DNA of 62,897 nucleotides, counting the filler. It is 6 parts of 6 records of this genome, joined end to end, with 100 filler letters (N's around TTAATTAATTAA, not from the genome) between each part and the next. Parts side by side here need not be neighbours in the genome. Positions count along the whole stretch, not along the records: positions 26,953 to 41,837 come from SRR2962707_2186; 5 more parts are not named here. One strand, written 5' to 3'. Shown piece by piece: positions 11,962 to 50,291 of the stretch (position 1 is the stretch's first letter; each line of letters begins with the position of its first letter). The notes beneath the pieces are model-generated. The model was not told where the DNA came from. It made no database searches and saw nothing but the letters and a program-made list of their open reading frames with translations. A program made the position numbers and the translations under genes.

Positions 11962-12061
11962 NNNNNNNNNNNNNNNNNNNNNNNNNNNNNNNNNNNNNNN
12001 NNNNNTTAATTAATTAANNNNNNNNNNNNNNNNNNNNNNNNNNNNNNNNNNNNNNNNNNNN
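11962..12061. other. Artificial contig spacer
   Basis: N-run containing TTAATTAATTAA (stops in all six frames). Confidence 0.99.
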
Positions 12062-18199: not shown

Positions 18200-18542
18200 T
18201 TACTTCCCCAATTCTTCCTCGATCGCACGGCACATGTCTTCTGTCGTCGCGTTCCCGCCCATGTCCGGGGTCTTCGGTCCATCCCCTTTGAGAAGGTTCT
18301 CGATGGCGGTAATCATGTCGGCAGCGGCCTCGGGATGGCCGAGATGATCCAGCATCATCGACGCACACCAGATGGTGCCGATCGGGTTGGCGATCCCCTT
18401 GCCGGCAATATCCGGGGCGGACCCATGAACCGGTTCGAACATCGACGGATAATCCCGCTCGGGATTGATGTTCCCGCTGGGCGCAATGGCAATCGTGCCC
18501 GTGATGCCGGGCCCAAGATCAGACAGGATATCGCCAAACAGG
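18200..18542 (-). CDS. Tartrate/D-malate dehydrogenase (beta-decarboxylating family), 5'-truncated
   Basis: LFGDILSDLGPGITGTIAIAPSGNINPE and SMFEPVHGSAPDIAGKGIANP. Confidence 0.85.
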
Positions 18543-18642
18543 NNNNNNNNNNNNNNNNNNNNNNNNNNNNNNNNNNNNNNNNNNNNTTAATTAATTAANN
18601 NNNNNNNNNNNNNNNNNNNNNNNNNNNNNNNNNNNNNNNNNN
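18543..18642. other. Artificial contig spacer
   Basis: N-run with TTAATTAATTAA. Confidence 0.99.
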
Positions 18643-26467: not shown

Positions 26468-26852
26468 CTACTCCACGGTCACCGATTTCGCCAGATTTCT
26501 TGGCTGATCGACATCGGTCCCCATGAAAACCGCAGTGTGATAGGCCAGAAGCTGGACCGGCACCGCCGCAAGAATCGGCGCGACGAACGGGTGAACGCGC
26601 GGCATCTCGATAATATCATTGATTCCGCCACCAGCCACGGCTTTGCCCTCTGCGTCGGTAATCAGGATGATCTTGCCGCCCCGCGCCGCCACTTCGTGCA
26701 TGTTCGAAAGCGTTTTTTCCATCAGCTCGTCAGATGGCGCCACAACGATCACCGGCATTTCCTCGTTCACCAGCGCAATCGGCCCGTGCTTGAGCTCGCC
26801 CGCCGCATAGCCCTCGGCGTGAATGTAGGAAATTTCCTTGAGCTTGAGCGCG
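26468..26852 (-). CDS. glmS: Glutamine-fructose-6-phosphate aminotransferase, C-terminal part
   Basis: [27 protein letters not shown] and the C-terminus [15 protein letters not shown]. Confidence 0.97.
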
Positions 26853-26952
26853 NNNNNNNNNNNNNNNNNNNNNNNNNNNNNNNNNNNNNNNNNNNNTTAA
26901 TTAATTAANNNNNNNNNNNNNNNNNNNNNNNNNNNNNNNNNNNNNNNNNNNN
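26853..26952. other. Artificial contig spacer
   Basis: N-run with TTAATTAATTAA. Confidence 0.99.
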
Positions 26953-27351
26953 ACACAGCTACCCCGCCCATTTCGAGGCTGTCGGATCAAGCCAATAGAA
27001 TTCCGCTTGGCGGTACCGCGGCACCGTTATCCGACTTGGACAGATTGGCCACCAAAGGGCCTGCCCTGAGATTTCCGTCAAGCCTGATGCTATCTGGCTC
27101 TTGGCGGTTTGCCGTTGGCTTAGGGTCACGGCAACCGTCAGTAATTCGTGGGGCGGGAGTTCAAAGGAACACGTATTGCTGCGCGAGGTTTCGTCCGACG
27201 CCAGGAACGAGAGCCTGCGCTACGCCCTCTATCTCTCGGGCCTAACTGATGCTGCCGCAGGTGTGCTCACACATTTCAGTTTCAAAGCAACCTATTCATG
27301 AAATCCAAAGACTTAGTCCCTTAGTTAAATTTATTACTTGAGGGCCTCATC

Positions 27352-27921
27352 ATGCAGCATCAGAACTACATCCATGTCGATCACACCCATTTTTTTATCG
27401 GGGACACTCATCTGGGGCATACTGGAATCCTCGATATGGCGATGCGCCCTTACAACGACATCGCTCAGCACGACCGGGACCTCATCGCAAATTGGAATAG
27501 CGTTGTTAAGCCCACGGATACGGTTTGGCATCTTGGGGACTTTGCATGGGATAAGCTGCCGACAATCGACGCCGGTGCAATTTTTAAGAAGCTAAACGGC
27601 ATTAAGCGGCTCGTCATCGGCAACCATGACACCGAGGACGTTCAGAAATTCGGTTGGGCCAGCACGCATGATATGGTGATCCTCAAGGCCAACGGTGCTG
27701 ACTTGGTACTCTTCCACTATCCGCTTCGGGAATGGCCCGGTTTCTATAGTGGAGCCCTGCACTTCCATGGACACACGCACGACAATCTCCCGTCCGGGCG
27801 CCGTGTTTGGGATTGTGGTGTCGATCATCAAGGCATTGTTCCCCTGACATATGACCAGATATGTCAGCGCATGGTGATGTTGCCAGAACTCGACTTTAGC
27901 GGCGTGCCACTTGCTGAGTGA
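27352..27921 (+). CDS. Calcineurin-like metallophosphoesterase (short type common in phages and islands)
   Basis: Motifs GDTHLGH, NWNSVV, HLGDF, GNHD, FHYP, HGHTH, DCGVD. Confidence 0.9.
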   Translation: MQHQNYIHVDHTHFFIGDTHLGHTGILDMAMRPYNDIAQHDRDLIANWNSVVKPTDTVWHLGDFAWDKLPTIDAGAIFKKLNGIKRLVIGNHDTEDVQKFGWASTHDMVILKANGADLVLFHYPLREWPGFYSGALHFHGHTHDNLPSGRRVWDCGVDHQGIVPLTYDQICQRMVMLPELDFSGVPLAE

Positions 27922-27939
27922 CCGTTTAGGAGCACGAAG

Positions 27940-28713
27940 ATGCGAGCGTGGGTGATGTCTGACCTGCATGTCGACAGTACGATGTTCCTTCTCCCTCCCA
28001 CGCCGCCGGATATCGATGCCATCATTATCGCTGGTGACGTCGCAGACGGTCACGATGGTTCCACGGCCTGGCTTTCAGAGCACGCTGTCCCACGTGGTCT
28101 GCCAGTCCTCTACATCGCAGGAAACCACGATGTTTTCGGCCACGATCGGCTCGGTGGGTTCGAGACGCTGTACGAGGCCGCCGGGGTTACGCTTTTGCAT
28201 CCCGGGCGCCCGACAACGATCATTGCCGGATGCCGCTTGGTTGGGACAACCTTGTGGACCGATTATCACATCACTGGCGACGCGCAATCTGCGCGGGCTT
28301 GGGCCCGCCGGAGCATGCCTGATATGGTTTCCATCGACGTGGGCATGCGGCGCGTGACTACGCGAGATTTGCTGGAGGAACATGCAAGGCAACGTGCTTT
28401 GCTGGAGGAGGAGTTATCCTATCCATACGACGGATCGACCGTTGTGATAACGCATCACGCCCCGCACCCGGGTTCGTTGCGATCACCGGAAAAGCGCGAT
28501 CCTTCCGATGGAAGTTTCGCGTCTGACTTGAGCGATCTAATGGATGCGTTCCAGCCTGCTGCGTGGGTGCATGGCCATACCCATATCAGCCGGGATTACT
28601 ATCACAACGCCACGCGAGTGGTATGCAACCCGCGTGGGCCGGTCCTGACTACAAAAGCGGGCATTCGTATCGAAAACCCCGAATTTGACGAAGAACTCGT
28701 CATCGAGATCTGA
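27940..28713 (+). CDS. Calcineurin-like metallophosphoesterase (second, different subtype)
   Basis: Motifs SDLH, AGD, GNHD, GTTLWTD, THHAP, WVHGHTH, CNPRG. Confidence 0.9.
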   Translation: MRAWVMSDLHVDSTMFLLPPTPPDIDAIIIAGDVADGHDGSTAWLSEHAVPRGLPVLYIAGNHDVFGHDRLGGFETLYEAAGVTLLHPGRPTTIIAGCRLVGTTLWTDYHITGDAQSARAWARRSMPDMVSIDVGMRRVTTRDLLEEHARQRALLEEELSYPYDGSTVVITHHAPHPGSLRSPEKRDPSDGSFASDLSDLMDAFQPAAWVHGHTHISRDYYHNATRVVCNPRGPVLTTKAGIRIENPEFDEELVIEI

Positions 28714-28826
28714 CAAATTTCCAACTGGGAACGAGGCGACACGTTCTGAGCGTCTTGCCGGGCGTCCGAGCGGTTACTCCTAATCGACCGAAACTTCAGG
28801 GTCGATCATTTCGCCTGCGCCGAGGC

Positions 28827-29066
28827 TCATTCCTGGTCTCTGGGGTGGTTGAGCAATACGCCGACACCTGAAGCCGTGTCCAAGAATGTAACGCCTGCTG
28901 CCTCCAATGCCTCCCTCAACCGGTCGGCGGTTCGTTCGAACGGGCGTGTCTTATTGTCCTCAAGCGATCGGATGGTTCGCTCGGTCACACCCGACGCAGT
29001 GGCAAGCTGTTCCTGGGTCCAATCCAGCAACGCCCGTGCCGCTCGAAGTTGGCTGCCGGTAATCAT
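28827..29066 (-). CDS. XRE/Cro-type HTH transcriptional regulator (79 aa)
   Basis: MITGSQLRAARALLDWTQEQLATASGVTERTIRSLE...LEAAGVTF; ATG at 29066. Confidence 0.9.
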   Translation of the reverse strand: MITGSQLRAARALLDWTQEQLATASGVTERTIRSLEDNKTRPFERTADRLREALEAAGVTFLDTASGVGVLLNHPRDQE

Positions 29067-29353
29067 AGAGAATCCTTTGCCGTAAGTGTCCGGCGCACGT
29101 GATCCCCGGTCAAGGATTACTTCGGTCCCGATATTAACCATGATCGCAGAAACTCTTCCGTTTTCCGGCAATTTGATTGATATTGTGCGAATTCCGTGTC
29201 ATGTCTTCTAGTCAGGGTCGCGGCACTCTAGCGCTTCCCTCCTCGGGACATGCGCCCGATTAGAATGTCGACGGATGGGCCAACCCGCCGGCAAAAATCC
29301 TTGCAAAATTTCCCGTCCGCAGACCGCGACACTCATGTCGCCGGAGTAAACCT

Positions 29354-29986
29354 ATGTCTCTTGCGTTACATCGCGGGCTAGACCCGCAATCCTATCCCGA
29401 CACACCCACCGGCATCGTTGATCGCAGCTTCGTCAGCCGACGACTCCTCCGAAACGCCGTCACGCTGGTAAACGCCCATCCGCGTGCGGATTACCTCGGT
29501 CCCGACAAGCTAGTCGACAGCCTTGCCCATGCCAAAGGATTCACCGGCGATGACCTGGCAATCCTGCGAGTATCGATTGGCAGGGGTCGCCATACCCTGA
29601 TCTGTGCACCTGAGATGCTTTGGTACTCCAGAAAATTCGACCTGCTCGAATTGAAGCAGATGGCCGGCTTCGCCGGACGGTCATGCTGTCTCATACCCGA
29701 AAGTGCCGTGCAGCGCCAGCCGCGCCTGAGTACCGCCCGGGCAATCGAAGATGCATGCGGCGTTTCGGTCTCCGTCGATCAAAGAATGGCAATCTTAGTT
29801 CATATGATTGAGAACGGCGGTAAATCCACATTTATGGATTGCGCGTGCGCCATTGATCACCCGCAGCCATTTTCAGCGGTGATGCATATGGTGGCCCTCG
29901 GCGTCCTACGCATTGACGCCACAACCGAGCTCAGGCCTCACAGCACCGTCAGCCTCAATGATAGATCGCCCGAGGAAGCCGCCTGA
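29354..29986 (+). CDS. Hypothetical protein resembling a catalytically degenerate TnsA paralogue
   Basis: GGAG RBS. The C-terminal half aligns by eye with the C-terminal half of the TnsA at 34311; no PD-(D/E)xK acidic residues are recognisable. Confidence 0.55.
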   Translation: MSLALHRGLDPQSYPDTPTGIVDRSFVSRRLLRNAVTLVNAHPRADYLGPDKLVDSLAHAKGFTGDDLAILRVSIGRGRHTLICAPEMLWYSRKFDLLELKQMAGFAGRSCCLIPESAVQRQPRLSTARAIEDACGVSVSVDQRMAILVHMIENGGKSTFMDCACAIDHPQPFSAVMHMVALGVLRIDATTELRPHSTVSLNDRSPEEAA

Positions 29987-30198
29987 CTTCCGCTTCCGGC
30001 CGGCGGTGCCGCGCTGCACATGCATGCTCGCTGCCCTTGGTCTCCGCCCAGTGATGGGGACCAACAGGCATCTGGCACGCGCGGCACCTGCCGGTCCGTG
30101 TTGCTTCTCACCGGCGGCACCCGGCCACATATCATGCTTTACGCCTCATACCAGTTTATCTCCAAAGCTGTAATCTGCCGCATGACAAGGATTTCACC

Positions 30199-30471
30199 AT
30201 GGACCTTGCTTTCAAGATAGAACGCCTCGCCGCCGACTTGCGCGCCATCGCCGATGGCAGCGGCCCCACCCATGACGAGCTCGCCGAGGCACCTCTGCTA
30301 TTGAACTGGCGCCTGGTTCCGATCCCCGCGGTCGCATTGGGGGGATTGGTGCTGGATCACCCCCGATTGGGCACGACACGGGTGACCACCTCCATGGTCT
30401 ATGCGATCAGTCCTGACAAACTCTGGGCACGCACGCTGTCACGCTACTATCGCTTTCAACCACCGGCCTGA
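30199..30471 (+). CDS. Small conserved protein with HPxLG...TS...WARTxSRxYR motif (recalled as DUF6634-like)
   Basis: AAGGA RBS; ELAEAPLLLNW, DHPRLG, VTTS, WARTLSRYYR. The family name is from memory and unverified. Confidence 0.75.
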   Translation: MDLAFKIERLAADLRAIADGSGPTHDELAEAPLLLNWRLVPIPAVALGGLVLDHPRLGTTRVTTSMVYAISPDKLWARTLSRYYRFQPPA

Positions 30472-30688
30472 TGCTCTGGCGCCCCTCGACTGCGGGCACC
30501 CCTGTTCCCGCAGCGCACATACACTTTGGGCCCACGGTCCCGCCTTTAACGCATACCTGGCGGCAATCGGGCATCACGATCGTGAAGTCGACAGATCGCT
30601 GACCCCTGCAGCATCCGATGTCGCTTTACTCCATTTCTTAGACAGCCCATCCCGGCGTTCGCGGAGGGCTCCACTCCGACATTCACAG

Positions 30689-32644
30689 ATGGCCAAGACC
30701 AAGCGCCTGGCATCCCCGGTGACGAGCGCTGATGCATTGGAGAGAAGTATGCACGTTGATATCGAGGACGACGACGAGCCCGAAAAGGCCGCAACGCCAG
30801 CAGGCACATGCCTCGTCAGTTCACGAGTTGCGGTTGCCTCAGTCGCCTTGGATCGTACGCTGGGCGCTTCCGGTCGTCGCTTGTTTAAAGGCACAAGCCG
30901 CATAGCCGCGGTTATTAAGGTTCCGACCGATCACTGGATTGTTCCCGTCAAGGCTGCCGTGCTAGCAATCAATCCCAAAATCACGTTCGCCGCCGAACAC
31001 GAAAAGCCGAAAACCAAAACCACCGAGGGACGAGAAGTCTCGGCAACGATTGCGCGAGGAGAGTCGGTCGTCGGCGTTTCCGCAAAGCCCGATCGCCTCC
31101 TGCCAGACGTCCTGTTGTTGGCCGCCACTCATCGATACGAGATCTCGCCGGCGACGCCCGAACTCGTCAGGCTCGCCATGAAATTGTGCCTTACCGGACG
31201 AACACCGGCTTCGCTCAAGAGTCTCGATCTATCTACTCTGGATTTCGATCTTCTGTGCGCGTGCATGCCGATGGGCATTACCAAAACGGCAGCCATCGAG
31301 CGACTATCCCGCGCCACGGCCAAACCCACCCGATCAGCCGGGTCGACCGGCCTTATTTACCCCAGTCTGGACGACGCCGTGGAATATGGTGATGCTCGCG
31401 CATGGGGACTGGACCTCAGAGCGGATATTGCTGATCTGCGCGCGAAGAAAGTGTCGTGGGCGGACATCGACCGCGGTGCAGTTCTCGAGGGCCCGCCGGG
31501 CTCTGGAAAAACGACGTTCGCCCGCATCTTAGGGGACGCCTGTGACCTGCCGGTCATCATGAGCTCGATATCGGAACTGTTTGCCAGCTCCGAAGGTAAC
31601 CTCGACTCCGTGATCAAGGCCCAGCGCAAGCTATTCGACGAAGCAACCGCTGCTGCTCCATGCCTCTTGTTCATCGATGAATTGAACGCCCTGCCAGATC
31701 CCGCCAGGATTTCACAACGGGGCAAGGACTGGTGGATGCCGGTGATCTACGACTTCTTTCTACTTCTTGATTCTGCCCTGTCGTCACGCGAGGGCATCAT
31801 CGTCGTAGGCGCCACCAATCTCATTCAGGATATTTCCCCGGCACTCCTCCGCCCGGGGCGACTGGAGCGTTCGATCCACATTGGAATTCCCGACGTCGAT
31901 GGGCTCGCCCGCATTTTGCGCACGCACCTGAGCGGAGATCTGGCGGGCCAGGATTTGCTCCCTTTAGCAAGAGCCGGTCTTGGCGCCACCGCAGCGGTCG
32001 CCATGGATTGGGTACGTGCGGCTCGGCGGACCAGCCGCCGGGCCGGTCGACCCTTGCTCGTCGGGGACCTCCTCGCGCAAATCACACCGGCTGACACCCG
32101 TTCGAGGGCAGATCGCTACCGGGCTGCGGTCCACGAAGCCGGGCACGGTGTGATTGGCTTGGCATTGGGCGAAAAACTCAAGGAAATATCGATAGTCCGA
32201 CGCGGCGAGTCCGGTGGTCGTGCGACCTTCGGCGAGCTGACTGAAACTCTCTTCGACCGCGAGCGCATGGAGCGTCAGGTAACCATGGTCCTCGGTGCGT
32301 CTGCTGCCGAGACAGAGGTATTCGGTTCGCTTTCCAGCGGCGCGGGCGGCAGTCCTGAATCCGATCTTGCTAGGGCGACCGACATTATGGCGACGCTACG
32401 GTCCAGCTATGGCATGGCCAACTCGTTGCTATGGGTGGCGCCAGCCGACGTGCCGACATTGTTAACACGTGACCCAGCGTTTCGGCAGGCTGTGGAAGCA
32501 GATCTTCAACGACTCTATGCCGATGCGAAGCGTCTGGCGCGCCAATACAGGGAGCAAATTCTGGCGGTTGCCGATCGGCTGCTCACGGAGGGCCAGATCT
32601 CGGGAGACATGGTGGCGCAATTGAGTTTCTTGGAGGCCGCCTGA
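30689..32644 (+). CDS. Soluble FtsH-like AAA+ ATPase / M41 zinc metalloprotease
   Basis: Walker A GPPGSGKT, Walker B LLFIDE, GATN, SRH PALLRPGRLE, HEAGH, SDLARAT; no N-terminal TM helices. Start at ATG 30689 is a best guess. Confidence 0.9.
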   Translation: MAKTKRLASPVTSADALERSMHVDIEDDDEPEKAATPAGTCLVSSRVAVASVALDRTLGASGRRLFKGTSRIAAVIKVPTDHWIVPVKAAVLAINPKITFAAEHEKPKTKTTEGREVSATIARGESVVGVSAKPDRLLPDVLLLAATHRYEISPATPELVRLAMKLCLTGRTPASLKSLDLSTLDFDLLCACMPMGITKTAAIERLSRATAKPTRSAGSTGLIYPSLDDAVEYGDARAWGLDLRADIADLRAKKVSWADIDRGAVLEGPPGSGKTTFARILGDACDLPVIMSSISELFASSEGNLDSVIKAQRKLFDEATAAAPCLLFIDELNALPDPARISQRGKDWWMPVIYDFFLLLDSALSSREGIIVVGATNLIQDISPALLRPGRLERSIHIGIPDVDGLARILRTHLSGDLAGQDLLPLARAGLGATAAVAMDWVRAARRTSRRAGRPLLVGDLLAQITPADTRSRADRYRAAVHEAGHGVIGLALGEKLKEISIVRRGESGGRATFGELTETLFDRERMERQVTMVLGASAAETEVFGSLSSGAGGSPESDLARATDIMATLRSSYGMANSLLWVAPADVPTLLTRDPAFRQAVEADLQRLYADAKRLARQYREQILAVADRLLTEGQISGDMVAQLSFLEAA

Positions 32645-32755
32645 CCACACCTTCGATCCAGGACCACTATACGGACCTGGCATCACGAGCGAAGGGATCG
32701 GTAACCCGTTGGGGTTCGCGCCGGAACTTTCCCGGCAACGACATCACACCTGACG

Positions 32756-33292
32756 TCATTCGGCCGGCAAATCTACCGGCTCCTCGGTTGGGTCCAAAGG
32801 TTCTTCCGGTCCCAACCCGCCTCCGATGAGGGGTTCGAGAACCGCGTATCCCTGTTTCAACCAATGAACCAGGTCATCGAATTCGCCTTCGCGACCGACG
32901 AAGTCTTGGCGGTTGCGGAATATCCAATCCACCGCCACGACCATTCTCGAATAGTCGCCCACAAGTTCGCCCAAACTCAAAAGCTTGCCAGATGATCGGC
33001 CGCTTGGACCGCGTCCAACAATGCCGGCGCCGTAGCGATCTTCGAGGTAGTCGAAAACGTCGGTCAGCGTCGACGAGCCCTTCCCCATTTTCTTGGCCGT
33101 TTTCGCCGCTGTCCATTTCGGATCGTGGGCGCTACCGGTGCGATGATGCGCGAGTGCGCGGATAGCGGTCTCGAACTTCACATCGTTGTTCGCAACATTC
33201 GGCTGGTTGTTCGAGATTTGAACTGCGCGGCGCGGATCAAGACGGGCCATCACAGGCTTGGACTTTTCGCGGGATTTGTCAATTTTGGTCAT
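32756..33292 (-). CDS. Stand-alone LysR/ModE-like winged-helix protein
   Basis: AAKTAKKMGKGSSTLTDVFDYLEDRYGAGIVGRGPSGRSSGKLLSLGE matches the LysR/ModE HTH pattern; AAGGGG RBS; no effector domain. Confidence 0.6.
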   Translation of the reverse strand: MTKIDKSREKSKPVMARLDPRRAVQISNNQPNVANNDVKFETAIRALAHHRTGSAHDPKWTAAKTAKKMGKGSSTLTDVFDYLEDRYGAGIVGRGPSGRSSGKLLSLGELVGDYSRMVVAVDWIFRNRQDFVGREGEFDDLVHWLKQGYAVLEPLIGGGLGPEEPLDPTEEPVDLPAE

Positions 33293-33342
33293 GGCGTCCC
33301 CTTAGAAATGGAAAACTTAAGGGGACGCTGGTTGAAAAAGGA

Positions 33343-33729
33343 TTAGGGGCCAAATCCTTTCAAGGATTTGAACTCATCGGGAACCGATCCGCCGATGCCG
33401 GCGAAGATGGGCCCGATCTCCCGAAGAACCTCCTCTTGAAGGGTCTCGCATACGTTATGCTTGAAGACACCACGAACGTGGGCACGGACCGTGTCACCAT
33501 CGCCTTGACGATAATCCAGCAGCTCCGGTCGGGCCGAGAGCAGCATGACTACGGTAGCGTCATCGAATTCGGCAGGTAGGTAATCGTTGCTGGCCTTTAC
33601 CAGCCCCTGCGCGACCCAGTCGCCCACCACGGCCCAATCCTCATTCCTGTCTTCTTCGGTGATCGTTAGGCGCAGCCACTCGATCGCGCGCACCGTCACC
33701 TTGGCCTTGTAGTCGTCGACGTCGAACAT
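33343..33729 (-). CDS. Hypothetical acidic protein (128 aa)
   Basis: GGAGAG RBS; plausible composition; co-oriented with the wHTH gene. Confidence 0.65.
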   Translation of the reverse strand: MFDVDDYKAKVTVRAIEWLRLTITEEDRNEDWAVVGDWVAQGLVKASNDYLPAEFDDATVVMLLSARPELLDYRQGDGDTVRAHVRGVFKHNVCETLQEEVLREIGPIFAGIGGSVPDEFKSLKGFGP

Positions 33730-34037
33730 TTCCGCTCTCCAATTGGTTGCAAGCGGACATTGCCCCGGATGCTGGCAAGAAACAAAAAGTCAAACAAACA
33801 TTTTTCTCAGAGTTTCCGATCAGTAAATTTTCCCGAAACCCGGGCCCCGGTGCACTTCGATACTCGGCAGTTCGGGTGCGCCGAGTTTGTCGCGCAGAAA
33901 CTTCGGCATCACCGAACTTCGGCCCGCGGAAGCTCCGATGTTCCTGCAGCAGCGGCCAAAATATTCCTGCGGCGGCAACAATATAAACGTGCGACTTGAG
34001 GGGAAGGAAACAACGCCAACCTGAAAGGACGCCCACG

Positions 34038-34172
34038 ATGGCCACACAAACCGCAATAAACACCAAAAATCTCAGATATCGTCATCCAATGGTGCTTGTG
34101 GACGATTTCGACGAATACTCAAACGCCGAACTTTCAGACGTACTTCGCCTAATTCGTACTGCCCGATACTAA
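34038..34172 (+). CDS. 44-aa leader ORF upstream of tnsA, absent from the ORF track
   Basis: MATQTAINTKNLRYRHPMVLVDDFDEYSNAELSDVLRLIRTARY*; preceded by TGAAAGGACG, the same 10-mer as before tnsB. Confidence 0.5.
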   Translation: MATQTAINTKNLRYRHPMVLVDDFDEYSNAELSDVLRLIRTARY

Positions 34173-34310
34173 CGATTTTCTCCCGGTATTATATTGAGTT
34201 CAGGAGTTAATGATTTGCTGGTCGATGTTCCCCCTCCCCTCTCTCTTCTGGTGACGCCGTTCCACCCGAAGCACCACGAAGGTGCGGCCAACTCGACGCA
34301 TCTCTACAAG

Positions 34311-35063
34311 ATGCTCCAGGAGTGCGTTTCCGCCCAGGCCTTTCGAGCCGCTTTTCCAGTATTTGAGAGCGCCCCTGTGCATTCTTCACCCGACCGGTCA
34401 GACGTTGAGTGGTCGATGCCGCTCGACAGCCGTGCGAGCCGCGTGCCGTCGGTGCGCAGCACGTCGTCTCATCGTGTCGCGGGCATGAACGCTCTAACCG
34501 GCCGCGCCCAGTACATGGAGAGCTTGATCGAAACCGATCTGATCTCGATTCATACCGTGGATCACGACGTGGTGGACATCGAAGAGCAGATCGAGCCGGT
34601 CCAGTACCTCGATCAGACCGGCAAAGTGCGCGAACACACTTTCGACGTCAGGATCACCCGAGCATCTGGGAAAGTATCCGTCTACGCCTGCAAGGCAGCG
34701 GCATTCAGGATTTCGAGCGGCATCGACGAGATCGTTGCTCGAATTCGCGAGCAGGTTCCCGGTTTCGCAGATGAACTCTTGGTCGTCACCCGTGCCGACG
34801 TAAGCAAGGTCGCTGCCGCCAACGCCAGGCAGATTCTTCAGGCTCGCCGTCTCCGGGATGAGCTCGACGAGGTCACATTGCGAAAGGTCATGTCCTCGGT
34901 CCATGGCTGGGTCACCATCGAGGCCCTCACGGACGATCCCGAGGAGGCAGGTCGCCTCTACGTCGCGGCGGTCAACCTCATCGATCGCGGTTCGATGCAA
35001 TGGACCAAAGCCGATCGCATCTGCCCCTCCATGTCTATCCGTTTCACCCCCTCATTTCTTTGA
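34311..35063 (+). CDS. tnsA: TnsA-like PD-(D/E)xK endonuclease
   Basis: ESLIETD, DVVDIEEQ, HTFDVRIT, YACK, C-terminal winged helix. Start uncertain (frame open from 34194). Confidence 0.8.
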   Translation: MLQECVSAQAFRAAFPVFESAPVHSSPDRSDVEWSMPLDSRASRVPSVRSTSSHRVAGMNALTGRAQYMESLIETDLISIHTVDHDVVDIEEQIEPVQYLDQTGKVREHTFDVRITRASGKVSVYACKAAAFRISSGIDEIVARIREQVPGFADELLVVTRADVSKVAAANARQILQARRLRDELDEVTLRKVMSSVHGWVTIEALTDDPEEAGRLYVAAVNLIDRGSMQWTKADRICPSMSIRFTPSFL

Positions 35064-35074
35064 AAGGACGTCCA

Positions 35075-37240
35075 ATGAACGTTCCCGCTCTCCGCTCCAG
35101 CCTCGTCCCCGCAATCGCCTCCGAAGGCAGCGCCCCGGCATACCGTTATGACCGGTCGCACCTCTATATTCTCAACGGCGTAAAACACATCTACGCCGAA
35201 AGCCAGGGATCGACCAACCGGTTTACCCTGCTGGATCAGCCCGATCTGTCCGTAGAGTTTTCGGACGAAGACCTCGAGGTCCTGCGTGACCGGGGACTCT
35301 TCCGCACGATCCGCTTCCACTTTCTCAAGTCTACACCAGCAAGGGTAGGTAAGTGGGCGAACCTAAGCGATCTTCCCGCAGAGGATCTGCGCGAGGTCCT
35401 ATTCCGCCAAACCATCTGCGACGGGATCATTTCCGCCCTGGGAAACCAGCGTCGTAGCTCGGAGAAGGACAAGCTGACGCTCTCCGACGCCAAACTCACT
35501 CCCCTGATTGCCAAGGTGTATGCCGGGTGGTTCGAGTGTGACGTCCAAGCGATGACCAAGGATGGTCGTAGTGGCTCGAAGTATCTGGGTAAAGTGCTTA
35601 TCAAGCCTGCCCCCTCAACGGCTCGTAGGTGGCTGCGTCAGTATCGTGCCTGCAATTTCGACCCAATGGCACTTTGCAAAAACTATGGGCGGAGCGGCAA
35701 CAGAGATAGCCGTCTGGGGAATCTTGAGCAGAAGATCGTGGCGCGCTTCTCGAAACGATATCTGAGCCGCCTGCAGCCGTCGAAGGCTGAGCTCTATCGA
35801 GAGATGGATCGATTCATTTTCAAGCTCAATAAGCGCCTGATCAGATCCGGCCGGAAGCGAGCCGTATGCCCGTCGCGACGTTCATTCGAGCGTGCCATTG
35901 ATCGGCTTGATCCGTTCGCTGTGATTGCCGGTCGTCAAGGTGTAGAGTACGCCAAACGCGAGCTCCAGATTATCCGTGGTGAGGTAGACGCAGTTCGGCC
36001 GCTCGAGCGTGTAGAAATGGACGAATGGCGCGTCCCACTCCAAACACTGCTCGAAAAAGCTGACCTGTGGTCGATGCTGCCGGCCGAGGAGAAGGCGAAG
36101 GTACAGCGCAAACGACTCTGGCTTTCTACGGCGATTGATACGGTCACTAGAACTGTTGTCGCTGCCAAAGTCATATTCGTCCCAAGTGGCTCGGCTGCCG
36201 TGCAGACAATTGCGATGGGCCTTTACGACAAGACCGAGATCGCCAGGGATGCTGGTTGCGAAATGCCCTGGGATATTTATGGCCTATGGGAAACCCTGCC
36301 CACGGACTCCGGATCCGCCTACGTCAGTCATGAGTTTCGGGCGGCCTGCATCGATGTCGGTATCCACGCCTATGTGACACCCGCCAAGCTACCGTCCATG
36401 CGGGGTCGGCAGGAGCGTCTCTATCGGACGCTGCACGACATGCTGATCGCGCAGTTTCCGGGCCGCTCCTTCCAAAACGTAGTCAAGAAGGGGGACTACG
36501 ACTCCGAGGCCAATGCGGTAATCGACTATGAAGAGCTGGCTCGAGCGCTGGTTCGCTTCATCGTAGACGTTTACCACGTTCGTCCGCATGCCGGGCTCGG
36601 TGGTGCCACTCCGTACGATACTTGGCAGCGTCTGCGGGCAAAGTATCGTGTCCTGCCGCCCCCTGAGAAGGACGTCGCCCGTCATGTATTCGGCATCACG
36701 CTGGAGCGTCGCATTGGTGCCTACGGCATCCGGGCCCTCGGCCTGAACTTTCAGTCCGAAGAACTTCAGCGCATGCGTTCGGCCTCTAGGAACAAGCCGG
36801 TGCTCGTCCGTCTCGATCCAAACGACCTAGGTTATGTATCGGTCAAGACGGACGATGGCTGGATGAATGTCCGATGCCAACGTGCGGGTTTCGAGGGTGT
36901 CTCGATGATGCACTGGCTGGCGGCTTCGCTGAAGCTTCGTCAGGAAAACGCCAGGCTTGCCGCCCTTCGCGAAGACGTGGTGCACGCCGCTCTCGATGCG
37001 ATCGCGGGCATGGCGCGGGGTGCCATCCGTCGCGCCGGAATTGCCTCTCCGGTCATTTCGCAGGAGGACGTCGAGAAGTTTGAGCGCGATCTCTATCGGA
37101 CATTCTCGTTCGACGAGGAGGGGATCGATTTCGGGGACATGACGGAACAATCGCTTGTCGGCACGTCGGCAACGCCTATCGAGGTCCCGGCGAAACCCGC
37201 CCTGCCCGCCCCCGATGGCAAGTATGAGATCGAAGACTGA
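35075..37240 (+). CDS. tnsB: TnsB/TniA-like DDE transposase with Mu-type C-terminus
   Basis: DDE triad VEMDEW / LPTDSGSAY / RGRQERLYRT; AIDTVTR; YHVRPHAGLGGATP; VRLDPNDLG; GAAAGGA RBS. Confidence 0.9.
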   Translation: MNVPALRSSLVPAIASEGSAPAYRYDRSHLYILNGVKHIYAESQGSTNRFTLLDQPDLSVEFSDEDLEVLRDRGLFRTIRFHFLKSTPARVGKWANLSDLPAEDLREVLFRQTICDGIISALGNQRRSSEKDKLTLSDAKLTPLIAKVYAGWFECDVQAMTKDGRSGSKYLGKVLIKPAPSTARRWLRQYRACNFDPMALCKNYGRSGNRDSRLGNLEQKIVARFSKRYLSRLQPSKAELYREMDRFIFKLNKRLIRSGRKRAVCPSRRSFERAIDRLDPFAVIAGRQGVEYAKRELQIIRGEVDAVRPLERVEMDEWRVPLQTLLEKADLWSMLPAEEKAKVQRKRLWLSTAIDTVTRTVVAAKVIFVPSGSAAVQTIAMGLYDKTEIARDAGCEMPWDIYGLWETLPTDSGSAYVSHEFRAACIDVGIHAYVTPAKLPSMRGRQERLYRTLHDMLIAQFPGRSFQNVVKKGDYDSEANAVIDYEELARALVRFIVDVYHVRPHAGLGGATPYDTWQRLRAKYRVLPPPEKDVARHVFGITLERRIGAYGIRALGLNFQSEELQRMRSASRNKPVLVRLDPNDLGYVSVKTDDGWMNVRCQRAGFEGVSMMHWLAASLKLRQENARLAALREDVVHAALDAIAGMARGAIRRAGIASPVISQEDVEKFERDLYRTFSFDEEGIDFGDMTEQSLVGTSATPIEVPAKPALPAPDGKYEIED

Positions 37241-38379
37241 TGCTTACAAATACCTCCGTAACCGGTGCTGCAGGCGTTCTCGATCGCCTGCAGCAGTCGC
37301 AATCACCCGAGCGACGCGCTCGCAATGAACTGATCCGTCAGATCGAACAGGCATACGTGCCGAACGAACGTGACGACAAGTTCCAAGTCGCGCTCGATGA
37401 AGTCGTCGACGCGCATGTCAGACATTTCGAGGCACGTCTAGATGGCGCCCACCGCAACGTCGGCTCTCTCGCTGAAGGACGACTCCTCGCTGTCGTCGGG
37501 CACTCCGGTGCCGGCAAGACACGCCTGCTTGAGCGTCATTTTCATCATCGGCCGGAATTCCGTGGATACGGCACGTCAAACTGTCTCCTGATCTCGGTCA
37601 AGGCTCAAGGTCCCTTTGCCCTAAGTGGCCTGGCAAGGAGCATTGCCGTCGCGGCGGGAGTGAAAGTTAGGAAAGCCTTCCATAACCGGGACGCTGCGTT
37701 TCAATTCGCCCGCGATCAGGTGGAAGATAGGATCATCATCATCCATATCGACGAGGCGCAGCTTCTGCTGTCGTCGCCGAAAGAAGAAGAAATTCAGTCT
37801 GCTCGAAATCTTCTTCGAACCTTTTGTCAGGAGTCTAAGTGGCCTGTGTCGGTCATTCTGTCGGGGACACCGGAAACGTCCAAGCTATTCGGTGACTACC
37901 AGATCGCTCGTCGACAGACGATCATTACCCTCGATGAGATCGATTTCCAGTCCGGCGTACCGATCCTGCAGTCCGCCATGAACGATTTTCTGAAGAAGGC
38001 GTCGCTGGCCGAAGCACTTGATCGGGGACTTCTATTCGAGCAACTGATGTATGCGTCACTGTACCAACTTGGCGATAGCATCGCCATCATGCGGGCCGCC
38101 TTCTCGCATGCCATCCGGGAGAACTCCGGTACCCTAAAGGTCGAGCATTTTGCCGCTGCCTTTCATGACAGAACGTCATGCCCCGCGGATTTAAATGTCT
38201 TCGGCGATGAGGTTGATTATCGCACCATCGACGTAGCGAAGCTCTATGAGCAGGCACGCGGCAAGCGTGCCAGGAAAACATCGGACACGGTGATGGAAGC
38301 GATGCCGGCGTCAACCGCGGCTGTGCAACCCACCGACCCGGTTGGGGTCAGGAAACTGCGGGTAAAGAGAAAAAAATGA
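37240..38379 (+). CDS. tnsC: TnsC/TniB-like AAA+ ATPase
   Basis: Walker A GHSGAGKT, Walker B IIHIDEAQ, ILSGTP, QIARR; start overlaps the tnsB stop. Confidence 0.9.
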   Translation: MLTNTSVTGAAGVLDRLQQSQSPERRARNELIRQIEQAYVPNERDDKFQVALDEVVDAHVRHFEARLDGAHRNVGSLAEGRLLAVVGHSGAGKTRLLERHFHHRPEFRGYGTSNCLLISVKAQGPFALSGLARSIAVAAGVKVRKAFHNRDAAFQFARDQVEDRIIIIHIDEAQLLLSSPKEEEIQSARNLLRTFCQESKWPVSVILSGTPETSKLFGDYQIARRQTIITLDEIDFQSGVPILQSAMNDFLKKASLAEALDRGLLFEQLMYASLYQLGDSIAIMRAAFSHAIRENSGTLKVEHFAAAFHDRTSCPADLNVFGDEVDYRTIDVAKLYEQARGKRARKTSDTVMEAMPASTAAVQPTDPVGVRKLRVKRKK

Positions 38380-40265
38380 TCAAGATCGCCCAACATCGTC
38401 TCCTCGGCCTAGGCGCAGGCGAGAGCCAGGCGAGCGTGCTTTCCCGTATCGCCATGGAGGTCGGGCTGACCCCGTTCGAGTTCTGCACCGAACTCCGCAC
38501 GAATGTGCCCGCCGTTCTCGATGGTGCTCCCGACGCCCTAAACCGGCTCGCGGAAGCCTGCCAAATAGATCCAGTCGCCCTGGCCGAGAACTCACTCATC
38601 CGAACGGGAAAGCGGCTGTATCGGCACCGGGGTATCGAAGTTCGTCAGCCGAACTTCGAACGAACGGTTATGCGGGTTTGCCCAACTTGCATTCGCGAAG
38701 ACATCGCTACCGGCTCTGGCCGCATCGTCACCAGGCCATACATGCGCACCTTGTGGCATGCTTCTGCCATTGGCACCTGCTCGATACACAACGTTGAGCT
38801 GGCGCTGGGCGGCCACGAGAAGCGTTGGACGAAGGTCAATGATACGGCGACAAGAATGCGCGGCGTCCTCGAGAGGCTGGATTCTCTGCCTGTAAGGGAC
38901 CTCGCCCCGACGCCAGCGGAAAGGTATCTTCTCGGCCGCTTCGAAGGTGCGGCGGACCGCTCGTGGCTCGGTGGGCAGTCCTACCATGCCACAACCAAGC
39001 TCTTTGAATATGTTGGAACCATGGAACGTCATGGTCTTCAAGGGAGCTGGCTTAATCTTACGGCAGACCAGAGGCGTGATGCCCTCCAGGCTGGGTATGA
39101 GGTTCTTCGGAGAGGGTCGGAGCATTTCGACGAATGGCTGGGGACGTACACCTCTTCCTTCTTCAGCGGCCGGGCGGCCTGGAGCGGCCAGCTTCTCTAC
39201 GGTCGCCTTTATATTTGGCTTAGGAGCAACCTTGCAGATGCCGAACTTGATGGTGCGCGCGAGGTCGTGCGGAACCACATGCTCGATCGGCTTCCGCTTG
39301 GGCCAGAAGATAGCATCTTTGACCAGCCGGTGGAGCGTCGGAAATTCCATACTCCGAACTCACTTTCGCTGTGTAGGAACATCCCCCTCACTTCCATCAG
39401 GCGCGTTGGGGCTTTTGAGAACGTCCTGGTCGATAATCCGGACCTTTCCGACGATCGGGTCCTCATGGACGCCGACGCCGGAGAAGCGCTGGCTGACCGT
39501 ATCGTCGCCATGTACGAAACAGCGGCGGCCATGGCGCCGGTTGCGAATGACTCGCCGGGGAAAAAGCGAAAGGCGAAAACTGGCCTCTCACTCCAGGACG
39601 TGCGGCGCAGAATGCACCTGATGCGCGGCCAGGAACGGTATATCCTGAACTCGGGTTATCTCACGCCACGCCCATCACCCGTGGAGGGCCAATATTCTTT
39701 CGAGGTGACCGAGGTCGATGCCCTAATAGACAAGATAATGTCACGCGTAGTTGTCCCGACGCCTGCCGGTCTGGTCCCCATTGCCACCGCCTATCGCCGG
39801 GCTGGGTGCAGCATAGTTCAAATATTCCCCCTCTTGATGGAGGGAAAAATGACGCGCGTCGGGATGGCAGAGGGAAAGGCCGGCATCGCGGGGCTGATGG
39901 TGTGCTCAGACGAGGTGAAGCGACTGCTGCCTCGACCACCGGCGAATGGCCTTAACAAGCAACAAGTGGAAAAAGCGCTGCGTACCACGTCGAGGGTGGT
40001 CAATCGACTACTCGATCGCGGCCACCTGCCCTATTTCATTGAACGGCACGGGACACGCTCTCAAAGGATGGTGTCCCAGGCCGATCTGGAAGCATTTATG
40101 AGTAAGTACATTTCCGCTCATAACTTGTCCCGCGAATGGCACCTCGGCACATACGGGGTGAAAAAACGGCTCGCCGATACCGGTGTGCGACCGGCCCTCG
40201 CCAGAGGTGAAATCAAGGCCTCTTTCTACCTTCGCTCGGATGTTCCAGACCGACTTCCAACCTAA
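38376..40265 (+). CDS. tniQ: TniQ/TnsD-family target selector with a long C-terminal multi-HTH extension
   Basis: GESQASVLSRIA; zinc motif RVCPTCIRED...W...CSIH; 629 aa; ATGA overlap with tnsC. Confidence 0.88.
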   Translation: MIKIAQHRLLGLGAGESQASVLSRIAMEVGLTPFEFCTELRTNVPAVLDGAPDALNRLAEACQIDPVALAENSLIRTGKRLYRHRGIEVRQPNFERTVMRVCPTCIREDIATGSGRIVTRPYMRTLWHASAIGTCSIHNVELALGGHEKRWTKVNDTATRMRGVLERLDSLPVRDLAPTPAERYLLGRFEGAADRSWLGGQSYHATTKLFEYVGTMERHGLQGSWLNLTADQRRDALQAGYEVLRRGSEHFDEWLGTYTSSFFSGRAAWSGQLLYGRLYIWLRSNLADAELDGAREVVRNHMLDRLPLGPEDSIFDQPVERRKFHTPNSLSLCRNIPLTSIRRVGAFENVLVDNPDLSDDRVLMDADAGEALADRIVAMYETAAAMAPVANDSPGKKRKAKTGLSLQDVRRRMHLMRGQERYILNSGYLTPRPSPVEGQYSFEVTEVDALIDKIMSRVVVPTPAGLVPIATAYRRAGCSIVQIFPLLMEGKMTRVGMAEGKAGIAGLMVCSDEVKRLLPRPPANGLNKQQVEKALRTTSRVVNRLLDRGHLPYFIERHGTRSQRMVSQADLEAFMSKYISAHNLSREWHLGTYGVKKRLADTGVRPALARGEIKASFYLRSDVPDRLPT

Positions 40266-40286
40266 CCACCGAACTCATTGCTACTT

Positions 40287-40316
40287 GCCCCGCTGCCCCT
40301 GGCCGCGGGGCTTTTT
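40287..40316 (+). terminator. Intrinsic terminator after tniQ
   Basis: GCCCCGC...GCGGGGC stem followed by TTTTT. Confidence 0.8.
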
Positions 40317-40493
40317 CATGCGTGAAGACACCGAATCCATTGGGCTAATCTGAGCGAAACTGACGCGTCCTTTTGGCCGAAGGCAGAGCCAAACTATTTC
40401 GCTAACCCATTGAATTCCAATAACTAATATCTACTCATTGAGCCATCCATTGGTACCCTTAAGACAAACCGACAACCCGTTGGAAGGCAGACA

Positions 40494-41021
40494 GTGAGCG
40501 ATCACGTTCTTGAGGAACTGCGAGAAACCTTCGAGGCGCGCAAGCGGCTCGAAGGCGCTGTTGGTTGGGAAAGATCAGGCGACGGCCGTAGCCTGCAATT
40601 TGTAGTTCCACTTATGATAGACGGGTTAATCGCAGAAGGAGTGCGCCTGCGGGGTTTAACCAGCACGCGAAGGCCCGATAGGGATGTCTCTTTCCAACAT
40701 GAACAAATACTCGGGGGCACCACATATCACGTATCCCGATTAGATTGGCGTCCTCGCGCACCACATACCAACCGAGGGGCTGGACCAGAAGAACTTAGAT
40801 TCTCTCCAATTTCAGGGAGCCATTGGCATCCCTTCCAACTGAATGCGGAACTTGGCGTCGAGGCAGTCCTTTCTATGGGCAACTTGCCCGTAGCTCTACC
40901 AATCGATCCAGATCCACTGGATTTTAACGCACTTAAGAATACACTGCGTGAGTTGTTTCGAATCGGCAACGCGCAGGAAATAGGATTGCCGCCGTGGTCA
41001 CCGGAACTGGACTTCGAATAG
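40494..41021 (+). CDS. Hypothetical protein with an RLDW...HxN...HWH motif, partner of the DUF1828-like gene
   Basis: GTG start with GGAAGG RBS; SRLDWRPRAPHTN, GSHWHPF; overlaps the next gene. Confidence 0.75.
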   Translation: MSDHVLEELRETFEARKRLEGAVGWERSGDGRSLQFVVPLMIDGLIAEGVRLRGLTSTRRPDRDVSFQHEQILGGTTYHVSRLDWRPRAPHTNRGAGPEELRFSPISGSHWHPFQLNAELGVEAVLSMGNLPVALPIDPDPLDFNALKNTLRELFRIGNAQEIGLPPWSPELDFE

Positions 41022-41758
41022 GTGAGGATAATCTCCGCGAGGTCGCGAGCAGCGTCTCACGTGAGCTCACGACGACCATTTTTGATCGTGGCGAGGCCTA
41101 CATCCAAACACCAATGCTCTATCCAGACGGCACAAACGTGCTCGTTCGATTGAATATGACCAACGGCAATGACTACTTCGTGACCGACTGCGGCTTAGGT
41201 GCGCGAACCGCTCACTTGTCTGGCGCTGACTACTGGTTCCGCAAGTATGGTGAAATTCATGCTAGAATGGCCGGCATCCATTTCGACGCTCAAGACTTTT
41301 TCACAGTCAATGTAGCGCGTGAAAAACTTGCAATGGCCGTTGCTACGCTCGCCAATGCCTCAAAGACAACAGTGGACATTGCCCTGTTAAAAATGTCTGA
41401 GCACCGCCAGGCTGAAAACAAGAAGCTGCTTGAGAGCAAGCTTGTCTCCATATTCGGCAGCAAGCATGTCACACTTGAAGCCGAAGTCACTGGCGCGTCC
41501 AATCATCGCTGGATGATCGACGTTTTGGTGGATCACAACAATCGCAGAACAGCCTTTGATCTAGTTAAACCCGTCCCGCAATCAGTTTATCCCGCGGTGG
41601 CCAAGTTTGTTGATATTAGCGATGCCGACATTAAACTTGGTCGTGTTGCTGTTCTTGAGAGCAGGCCACCAGAAATGGACCTGGTGACGCTTCTAAGCAG
41701 ATCGGCCAAGGTAATTTTCAGATCTGACCCAGACGAAATATATCAAGCAGCGGCATAA
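40994..41758 (+). CDS. DUF1828-like N-terminal domain plus a restriction-endonuclease-like C-terminal domain
   Basis: IQTPMLYPDG...VTDCG N-terminal motif; C-terminal VTGASNHRWMIDVLV and KFVDI. Confidence 0.7.
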   Translation: MVTGTGLRIGEDNLREVASSVSRELTTTIFDRGEAYIQTPMLYPDGTNVLVRLNMTNGNDYFVTDCGLGARTAHLSGADYWFRKYGEIHARMAGIHFDAQDFFTVNVAREKLAMAVATLANASKTTVDIALLKMSEHRQAENKKLLESKLVSIFGSKHVTLEAEVTGASNHRWMIDVLVDHNNRRTAFDLVKPVPQSVYPAVAKFVDISDADIKLGRVAVLESRPPEMDLVTLLSRSAKVIFRSDPDEIYQAAA

Positions 41759-41837
41759 ACAGCTGAGCGATTTCAGGCAACGAAAACTTATCCCCGCCCC
41801 CGGCCCCTCATGCCATTCTCCCCTCACGACCGCACCA

Positions 41838-41937
41838 NNNNNNNNNNNNNNNNNNNNNNNNNNNNNNNNNNNNNNNNNNNNTTAATTAATTAANNNNNNN
41901 NNNNNNNNNNNNNNNNNNNNNNNNNNNNNNNNNNNNN
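41838..41937. other. Artificial contig spacer
   Basis: N-run with TTAATTAATTAA. Confidence 0.99.
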
Positions 41938-50191: not shown

Positions 50192-50291
50192 NNNNNNNNN
50201 NNNNNNNNNNNNNNNNNNNNNNNNNNNNNNNNNNNTTAATTAATTAANNNNNNNNNNNNNNNNNNNNNNNNNNNNNNNNNNNNNNNNNNNN
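50192..50291. other. Artificial contig spacer
   Basis: N-run with TTAATTAATTAA. Confidence 0.99.

Follow-up and report, generated by a model that had tools for sequence, protein, structure and literature searches.

Tn7-like elements serve as models for controlled, targeted transposition and as the chassis of CRISPR-guided integration tools, and TnsA is the subunit that decides between cut-and-paste movement and cointegrates. TnsA of Tn7 (1f1z, 1t0f) consists of a restriction-endonuclease-like domain and, C-terminal to it, a helical or winged-helix domain, and so does PseTnsA, a short TnsA of about 200 amino acids (aa) from CRISPR-associated transposons of type I-F. For PseTnsA, the catalytic triad is named as E34, D71 and K87 in an excerpt of PMC13598128. 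The DNA stretch analyzed here (62,897 nucleotides with filler; "the window" below means the whole of it) contains, on one contig with a tnsA-tnsB-tnsC-tniQ cluster, an open reading frame (ORF) encoding a TnsA-like protein of similar size and domain order. This protein is homologous to TnsA, two of its three triad positions are replaced, its gene is under purifying selection, and the linkage of this gene to genes for an XRE-type regulator, a DUF6634 protein and an AAA+/M41 protease is conserved. The protein probably controls rather than cuts. The role we propose, with a confidence slightly short of an even chance, is that of a TnsA-derived pseudonuclease serving in this module as a docking subunit that tunes or switches off transposition.

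Relation of the protein family to TnsA

The ORF (plus strand, 210 aa) starts with the ATG at position 29354, with GGAG located 9 nt upstream, and ends with the stop at 29986; an earlier sequence-only reading of the window had given the same coordinates. A word-indexed search revealed 28 homologous proteins (182–211 aa, 54–100% identity). Alignment A1 comprised 24 close-family sequences and contained 47 invariant columns; three near-duplicates, a fragment of 182 aa and the entry of the window itself had been set aside. When the HMMER profile of A1 was compared with 1.84 billion cluster representatives, 164 of them matched at E ≤ 0.001, 112 at E ≤ 1e-10 and 21 at E ≤ 1e-30, so that the ORF defines an unannotated protein family. 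Most of these matches were 195–215 aa long, and 15 representatives matched in the C-terminal half only. No longer or fused family forms were found among 8000 scored candidates, which is weak evidence. Representative P0061 (3077 aa) gave 17 separate profile matches, the best at positions 39–71, and may be a repeat or compositional artefact. For the broad alignment, A2, sequences below 185 or above 260 aa were removed, and 105 sequences were included.

The TnsA-like ORF is a real gene under purifying selection: the ratios of non-synonymous to synonymous substitution rates (dN/dS, Nei–Gojobori) were 0.063, 0.117, 0.128 and 0.094 for four pairs with unsaturated dS, more distant pairs being saturated and less reliable. 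The description of the gene as intact in the sequence-only reading was thus borne out by values of 0.06–0.13 among homologues.

The similarity to TnsA is real and beyond chance. Pairwise BLASTP between the ORF product and the window's TnsA (34194–35063) found nothing (E = 22). Comparison of A1 with A3, an alignment of seven TnsA sequences having the window's TnsA as its first row, using hhalign gave a probability of 90.5% (E = 1.4e-6, 167 columns), with residues 30–204 placed on TnsA residues 110–286. In this alignment, RRLLRNAV... was paired with SLIETDLI..., CCLIPESAVQRQPRLSTARAI with LLVVTRADVSKVAAA-NARQI and PFSAVMHMVALGVLRIDATTELRPHSTVSL with LYVAAVNLIDRGSMQWTKADRICPSMSIRF; the register is identical to that of the by-eye alignment to this TnsA proposed earlier. 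The hidden Markov model (HMM) built from A3 matched the TnsA-like ORF (E = 4.3e-5), and this was the sole non-self match among the window ORFs of at least 60 aa. The A1 HMM matched the Pfam-positive TnsA of locus L023 (E = 8.8e-8; Z = 1, six targets), and the broad A2 HMM matched three Pfam-positive TnsAs of other elements (2e-18, 2e-10 and 8e-7); five weaker A2 matches in genomes were regular TnsAs of other Tn7-like elements (L037–L040, L043). Among PDB sequences, the A1 profile had no matches at E ≤ 10, and the best match of the broad profile was PseTnsA, which was non-significant (E = 0.2) and located in the homologous region. In the protein atlas, one nearby cluster set has PF08722 on 12% of its members, and we regard this as a lead only.

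The AlphaFold2 model of the protein (predicted local distance difference test score, pLDDT, 82.8; predicted template modelling score, pTM, 0.77) contains a PD-(D/E)XK-like domain at about residues 22–121 and a winged helix at about 126–205, residues 1–21 being disordered. The three top PDB matches in the Foldseek search were Tn7 TnsA structures, namely 1t0f_B (E = 1.1e-3, probability 0.97), 1t0f_A and 1f1z_A, aligned over 197–214 columns in both domains. The template modelling (TM) score to TnsA was low, 0.28, as expected if the two domains are placed differently. VIA-align, which is independent of Foldseek, placed residues 22–121 on PD-(D/E)XK folds, namely Vsr (Z 7.9), VRR_NUC (7.7), splicing endonuclease (7.5), XisH (6.8–6.9) and TnsA (6.5–6.8; for 1t0f, Z 6.7–6.8 with a root-mean-square deviation, rmsd, of 2.7–2.8 over 85–86 residues), and residues 126–205 on winged-helix domains (Z 5.5–6.7). 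Taken together, the profiles and the model support homology to TnsA in both domains. The protein combines the N-terminal fold, the C-terminal winged helix and the sequence homology of a TnsA, and it lacks a match to the curated models, the complete catalytic triad and a place immediately upstream of tnsB.

Residues 1–21 (29354–29416) are predicted to be disordered (pLDDT about 41), yet the close family conserves M1, S2, L3, A4 and G8 at 90% or more. Such a tail would suit a terminal recognition tag.

The window's TnsA has the triad E109, D151 and K167, and E109, S110, E113, Q132, D151, K167, N210 and A211 are invariant in A3. In the hhalign columns, D151 pairs with D67 and C166-K167 with C84-A85, while E109 falls on S28, one residue ahead of the aligned block. 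At position 85 (K167 of TnsA), Ala was found in 13, Val in 8, Ser in 2 and Thr in 1 of the 24 close-family sequences; in the broad family the residues were Val (60), Ala (22), Ile (10), Leu (4), Pro (3) and Gly (2), and the catalytic Lys was present in none of the 105 members. Position 28 (E109) was variable in the close family (V9, S8, A6, I1), and the six commonest residues in the broad family were H28, A17, R8, V7, Y7 and N6, Glu not being one of these six. Position 67 (D151) was Asp in 22 and Glu in 2 close-family sequences, with D68, G17 and E5 as the commonest residues among the 105. With two of three triad positions replaced, the TnsA paralogue is likely catalytically dead, and the loss of Lys is the more telling one. 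The "nuclease-dead second TnsA" of the sequence-only reading is thus supported as a likely-dead paralogue with S28, D67 and A85 at the triad positions. The claim that the acidic catalytic residues were missing holds for the Glu, replaced by the variable S28, but not for the Asp, kept as D67; that reading had overlooked the Asp, the change of the catalytic Lys (K167 to A85) and the protease module.

The protein could still be a nuclease with an active site rearranged from D67, D51 and K94 or R93, as in moved-lysine PD-(D/E)XK variants. All of these residues show full or almost full conservation among the 24 close relatives, and Vsr, the best VIA-align match, is an enzyme without the classical motif. 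However, they are not kept broadly: position 67 is Gly in 17 of the 105 sequences, position 94 is R50, M23 and K19, position 93 is scattered, and only W90 is nearly invariant (98/105). Neither the acidic pair and Lys of active PD-(D/E)XK nucleases nor a relocated equivalent is kept across this alignment. As judged from family-wide conservation, an altered active site is not supported, and we consider a surviving nuclease very unlikely.

Conserved linkage and element boundaries

In order to evaluate the gene neighborhood, 23 genome and metagenome loci were annotated with our own HMMs and Pfam, and 18 of them, including the window, hold a family member; the retrieval of metagenome loci covered the close family only (5 loci). 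The steadiest partners of the TnsA-like gene are the genes for XRE, DUF6634 and the AAA+/M41 protease. The protease gene was found in the fetched stretch of 12 of the 18 loci (window, L001, L002, L023, L024, L026, L028, L035, L042, L044, L045, L046), and both TnsB and TnsC in 9 (window, L001, L002, L023, L024, L027, L028, L035, L041), so the linkage to the protease is tighter than that to tnsB/tnsC. An XRE gene is adjacent in 8 loci (window, L001, L002, L023, L032, L033, L035, L044), divergent from the family gene in seven and located upstream on the same strand in the eighth, L044. DUF6634 is part of the module in the window, L001, L002, L033, L035, L024, L026, L036 and L046. Two of the 18 loci (L032, L033) are short contigs ending before the neighboring genes. 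In a group of divergent Tn7-like elements, the four-gene module is located on the tnsA side of tnsA-tnsB-tnsC-tniQ.

Some loci deviate from this arrangement. The family gene overlaps the protease gene by 4 bp in L028. The L036 locus contains an AAA ATPase lacking M41 and adjoining Prok-E2/ThiF and SNase genes, and a TniQ gene lies 3 kb away. In L023, all genes from the family member through a 970-aa selector lie on one strand between gyrB and housekeeping-type genes. The family member of L041 is probably that element's own TnsA.

The protease combines a degenerate AAA-like N-domain with an AAA+ domain (GPPGSGKT, DE) and a HEAGH-containing M41 peptidase. Its Walker A, Walker B and HEAGH motifs are invariant in 13 protease sequences (alignment A5), and the protease looks active judging by these motifs. 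Its N-terminal region 45–211 (within 30689–31474) was confidently modeled as a second, degenerate AAA-like domain, whose best Foldseek match was proteasomal Rpt (E = 6.5e-4), with FtsH and Cdc48 also among the matches; the protease thus looks like a tandem-AAA machine without membrane anchors. Note that the ORF is open from 30401 and that the start at 30689 (MAKTKRL) was chosen by us.

A comparison of protein identities to the window revealed a mosaic pattern. For L001, the identity was 82% for the TnsA-like protein, 60% for XRE, 66% for DUF6634, 74% for the protease, 88% for TnsA, 90% for TnsB and 87% for TnsC. The respective values were 65, 47, 39, 31, 29, 28 and 23% for L002 and 55, 56, 46, 44, 26, 28 and 27% for L035. 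At long range, the TnsA-like protein is the best-conserved gene product of the locus, which indicates a strongly constrained role and argues against simple co-evolution with TnsB/TnsC.

These values bear on the possibility, raised in the sequence-only reading, that the protein is a stand-alone dominant-negative or mode-switching TnsA, which would occupy the seat of TnsA on TnsB/TnsC and block 5'-end cleavage, so that transposition is inhibited or turned replicative without involvement of the protease. Inactivation of TnsA of Tn7 leads to cointegrates, and the preserved TnsA body with the catalytic Lys and Glu gone fits such a subunit. In L027, moreover, the family gene lies directly 5' of tnsA-tnsB-tnsC-tniQ with no protease gene nearby, and an excerpt of PMC13598128 describes TnsA of a solved type I-F transposase as contacting TnsB via both subdomains. 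However, 65% identity between the window and L002, against 29, 28 and 23% for TnsA, TnsB and TnsC, is unexpected for a subunit co-evolving with these proteins. Linkage of the gene to AAA/M41 is also no rarer than its linkage to tns genes, and some family members occur at loci in which tns genes were not seen. We regard this explanation as unlikely, the gene context pointing rather to a control module linked to the protease.

The module was found without tns genes in the fetched 20 kb of L026, L036, L042, L044, L045 and L046. These loci are often partial, containing the N-terminal half of the protein (L044, L045) or its C-terminal domain in a larger protein (L042, L046), and L044 includes a large serine recombinase. 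They would fit cargo, namely a self-contained defence or abortive-infection-type system of XRE, TnsA-like protein, DUF6634 and AAA/M41 on mobile elements, in which the dead nuclease domain would sense DNA and the protease would be the effector. The protease matches the PADLOC IetA models, through its AAA domain only (E = 8.5e-12), and defence cargo is common in Tn7-like elements according to an excerpt of PMC8649781. On the other hand, none of the models in PADLOC-DB 2.0 matches the TnsA-like protein or DUF6634, and the module stays on the tnsA side across Tns cores with 21–28% TnsB identity, unlike cargo, which varies between close relatives. The paralogy with the element's own nuclease also suggests an origin inside the transposition machinery. 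The probability of the cargo explanation is low.

Transposon ends were not found among the repeats of the window contig, the inverted repeats of L023, the DNA beyond XRE in seven loci or in a 60.5-kb self-comparison of L001. Apart from one chance match of 17 nt in coding sequence, the self-comparison returned nothing but an inverted pair of 68 bp enclosing a 2.5-kb insert. The inverted pair (98.5% identity; G001:C1:975527-975594 and 978051-978118; L047 ~18428-18495, L001 ~891-958) flanks about 2.5 kb, resembles a small insertion sequence and is located about 9 kb 5' of that genome's family member. In L023, the 13-nt motif ATAATGAGTSTAC is present at 4091–4148 in two exact copies and one degenerate copy. 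These follow closely on the gyrB stop, about 30–85 bp away from where the gene for the 970-aa selector ends, and no inverted counterpart was located within 60 kb.

The spacer between the hypothetical gene 33343..33729 and tnsA showed about 80% identity and no break when the window was compared with L001. Left of XRE, the DNA is different in each locus compared and looks like cargo, which favors a position of the module inside the element. In L035 (1–9480), this DNA is an arsenic gene set (ArsR-like, low-molecular-weight phosphatase-type ArsC, ACR3-type SBF and an ArsH-like flavin mononucleotide reductase), and in L001 it contains RES, AIPR and GIY-YIG genes. In L002 (2562–9183) and L025 (1931–8426), two proteins are encoded 5' of the family member, a giant of about 1800 aa and a smaller one of about 355 aa. 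One of these loci has tns genes and the other does not; the FtsK/SpoIIIE domain of the giant was seen in L002.

A position inside the element is favored, not proven. It is extremely improbable that the module is located outside the transposon as an attachment region, with elements inserting beside it, their usual tnsA-proximal end facing it, and the linkage reflecting target choice. The module is always on the tnsA side, the 464-bp non-coding stretch between 33729 and 34194 could hold an end, module-only loci exist and no ends were found further out. However, all four close-family loci with enough flank (window, L001, L002, L035) have tns genes, whereas an attachment gene should mostly be empty, and the flanks left of XRE change from locus to locus as cargo does. 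There is no room for an end in L023, where the tnsA ORF is overlapped by the gene preceding it. The homology of the family to TnsA would, under this explanation, be a coincidence.

Gene content of the contig

The window consists of six contigs joined by five N44-TTAATTAATTAA-N44 linkers (Table 1), and the TnsA-like ORF is located on a contig of 14,885 bp (26953–41837), 4.2 kb upstream of tnsA. Gene-order readings across linkers are unsafe, for example that of glmS beside a Tn7-like element: since the window is a chain of contigs, the glmS fragment and the atp gene beyond 41938 are not demonstrated as flanks of the element. An attTn7-like site at the glmS fragment was considered and rejected, as this fragment lies on another contig and the data contain no linkage to the element. 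The "same island" of the sequence-only reading holds to the extent that the two tnsA-related genes share a contig; the glmS fragment and the atp gene are on other contigs.

Table 1. Features of the window; positions are counted along the whole stretch.
Feature	Position	Strand	Basis or remark
Contig linker	11962-12061		N44-TTAATTAATTAA-N44
Contig linker	18543-18642		N44-TTAATTAATTAA-N44
GlmS-like SIS-domain protein, C-terminal end	26468-26770	-	At edge of neighboring contig
Contig linker	26853-26952		N44-TTAATTAATTAA-N44; left edge of contig with TnsA-like ORF
Calcineurin-like metallophosphoesterase	27352-27921	+	
Calcineurin-like metallophosphoesterase	27940-28713	+	
XRE-type helix-turn-helix regulator	28827-29171	-	PF01381, E = 2.8e-8
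TnsA-derived protein, 210 aa	29354-29986	+	ATG 29354, stop 29986; homologues, AlphaFold2 model, fold searches, hhalign, dN/dS
DUF6634 protein	30199-30471	+	PF20339, E = 1e-13; between TnsA-like ORF and protease
Soluble FtsH-like AAA+/M41 protease	30689-32644	+	PF00004, E = 4e-21; PF01434, E = 4e-18
Hypothetical protein, 178 aa	32756-33292	-	No Pfam/NCBIfam/PADLOC match; only window and L001 among 23 loci
Hypothetical protein, 128 aa	33343-33729	-	No Pfam/NCBIfam/PADLOC match; only window and L001 among 23 loci
Regular TnsA	34194-35063	+	PF08722, E = 0.0021 (below cut-off); NF033179, E = 0.0024; E109, D151, K167 present
TnsB, DDE transposase	35000-37240	+	rve, E = 1.1e-5; Mu-transpos_C, E = 1.4e-5
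TnsC/TniB AAA+ regulator	37240-38379	+	AAA_22, E = 1.1e-13; TniB, E = 2.9e-7
TniQ/TnsD-type target selector	38376-40265	+	TniQ, E = 1.1e-15; HTH_17, E = 1.8e-4
Hypothetical ORF 3' of tniQ	40494-41021	+	
Hypothetical ORF 3' of tniQ	40994-41758	+	
Contig linker	41838-41937		N44-TTAATTAATTAA-N44; right edge of contig with TnsA-like ORF
Contig linker	50192-50291		N44-TTAATTAATTAA-N44

Along this contig, two metallophosphoesterase genes and the XRE gene precede the TnsA-like ORF, and the DUF6634 and AAA+/M41 genes, two hypothetical genes, tnsA-tnsB-tnsC-tniQ and two further hypothetical ORFs follow it. The XRE gene is transcribed divergently from the TnsA-like ORF, with a spacer of 182 bp between them, and this regulator fits the earlier description of the gene as separately regulated. 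XRE homologues align only from residue 36, so the true start is probably near 29066. The promoter scan found no sigma-70-like promoters in 28700–30750. The start of the regular TnsA is uncertain, the database versions having 282 aa, and the spacer at 33860–33940 before tnsA contains several (A)ACTTCGG-like words, which could be operator or transposase sites.

Genes for calcineurin-like metallophosphoesterases recur beside the module in three unrelated loci, namely the window, L042 (10467–11303) and L045 (7762–9042), in the last case together with an SbcC-like AAA_27 protein. The 257-aa metallophosphoesterase of the window has a weak match to PADLOC PDC-S10 (E = 1.8e-7). The ORF at 40994–41758 has a weak match to the PADLOC candidate PDC-M24B (E = 8.3e-6) and hence may be defence cargo.

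Proposed role and comparison with known systems

Our best guess is that, within a protease-based control module, the TnsA-like protein acts as a scaffold without catalytic activity. Having kept the two-domain body of TnsA and lost the catalytic Glu and Lys, it would not cut DNA and could serve the protease module as a docking subunit. It might be an adaptor, recruiting DNA or a partner that binds TnsA (TnsB/TnsC) for the protease, or else a decoy kept at a level that the protease determines. With the module under the XRE repressor, transposition would be tuned or switched off. Prediction of a complex between the TnsA-like protein and the protease N-domain (30–262) gave a score of 0.00 and a mark of 0.34 with the alignments unused, and is uninformative either way.

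Several observations weigh against this proposal. The HMMER family profiles matched the window's TnsA out of register and non-significantly (E = 0.04 and 0.026, Z = 1). The VIA-align Z values of 6.5–7.9 are in a range described as common by the tool, and TnsA does not rank first, so structure by itself does not single out TnsA. No family in Pfam, NCBIfam or PADLOC covers the protein: the PF08722 and NF033179 cut-offs are not reached, and none of the 105 broad-family members matches PF08722 at E ≤ 0.1. PD-(D/E)XK active sites are plastic, and the retained Asp together with polar residues invariant in the close family (D23, R29, R30, N34, D51, R93, K94) makes residual or altered catalysis possible. 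As the module occurs without tns genes, its role need not concern transposition, and as the ends were not found, the place of the gene inside the mobile unit is putative.

A more specific version, which we regard as distinctly unlikely, is that a group of Tn7-like elements possesses its own regulated-proteolysis switch built around a dead TnsA mimic, a built-in counterpart of ClpX acting on MuA that would be subject to an XRE repressor. Either the mimic would deliver the TnsB/TnsC-bound transpososome to the element-encoded FtsH-like AAA+/M41 machine, which would disassemble or destroy it, or the mimic would be a protease-controlled inhibitor whose removal licenses transposition.

In the literature search, no paper on DUF6634 was found, nor was any description of a TnsA paralogue, an FtsH-like partner or the module; article supplements, which lay outside the search, could list such genes. 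Regarding a second, inactive or paralogous TnsA, the relevant papers, in the excerpts available, use "two TnsA" for copies in a complex. The joint occurrence of a conserved, selected, catalytically crippled TnsA, an AAA+ protease and a repressor would suggest transposase control at a level new to the searched literature. Should the protein bind TnsB or TnsC, it would act as a naturally occurring inhibitor or switch of mode; should it feed the protease, it would be the transposon's means of dismantling its own machinery.

Compared with TnsA, the protein shows profile-level homology over both domains, a gene beside tnsB/tnsC/tniQ and the post-linker "NA" motif (N210-A211 of TnsA; at family positions 127/128, N in 57 and A in 70 of the 105 sequences). 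It differs in the replaced catalytic Lys and Glu and in the absence of PF08722/NF033179 matches. Its gene is also separated from the regular tnsA, which lies directly before tnsB, by five genes, and it has its own motifs (T81...P86.R88.W90), its own regulator and the AAA+/M41 linkage.

Inactivated enzymes have been co-opted by Tn7-like transposons before: excerpts of the literature describe TnsF of Tn6022-like elements, an inactivated enzyme fold used as a binding scaffold (PMC10293859), and Cas12k of type V-K elements, a pseudonuclease. Unlike these target selectors, which derive from a recombinase or a CRISPR nuclease, the protein studied here originates from the nuclease subunit of the transposase itself, and nothing indicates a role in targeting. 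XisH, the fdxN element excision-controlling factor (2inb, 2okf), is likewise a small endonuclease-fold protein tied to excision control. The similarity to it is at the fold level only (VIA-align Z 6.8–6.9, rmsd 2.3, 82 residues, a common score range), with no sequence evidence, and XisH lacks the winged-helix domain.

ClpX remodels the MuA transpososome, and ImmA/ImmR are protease–repressor pairs of integrative elements. By analogy, the module may resemble these systems, in which a mobile element is switched through the action of an unfoldase or protease, the target being an XRE-type repressor or a transposase complex. However, they employ a host unfoldase or a small metalloprotease, whereas the module described here contains an element-linked, soluble FtsH-like AAA+/M41 fusion.

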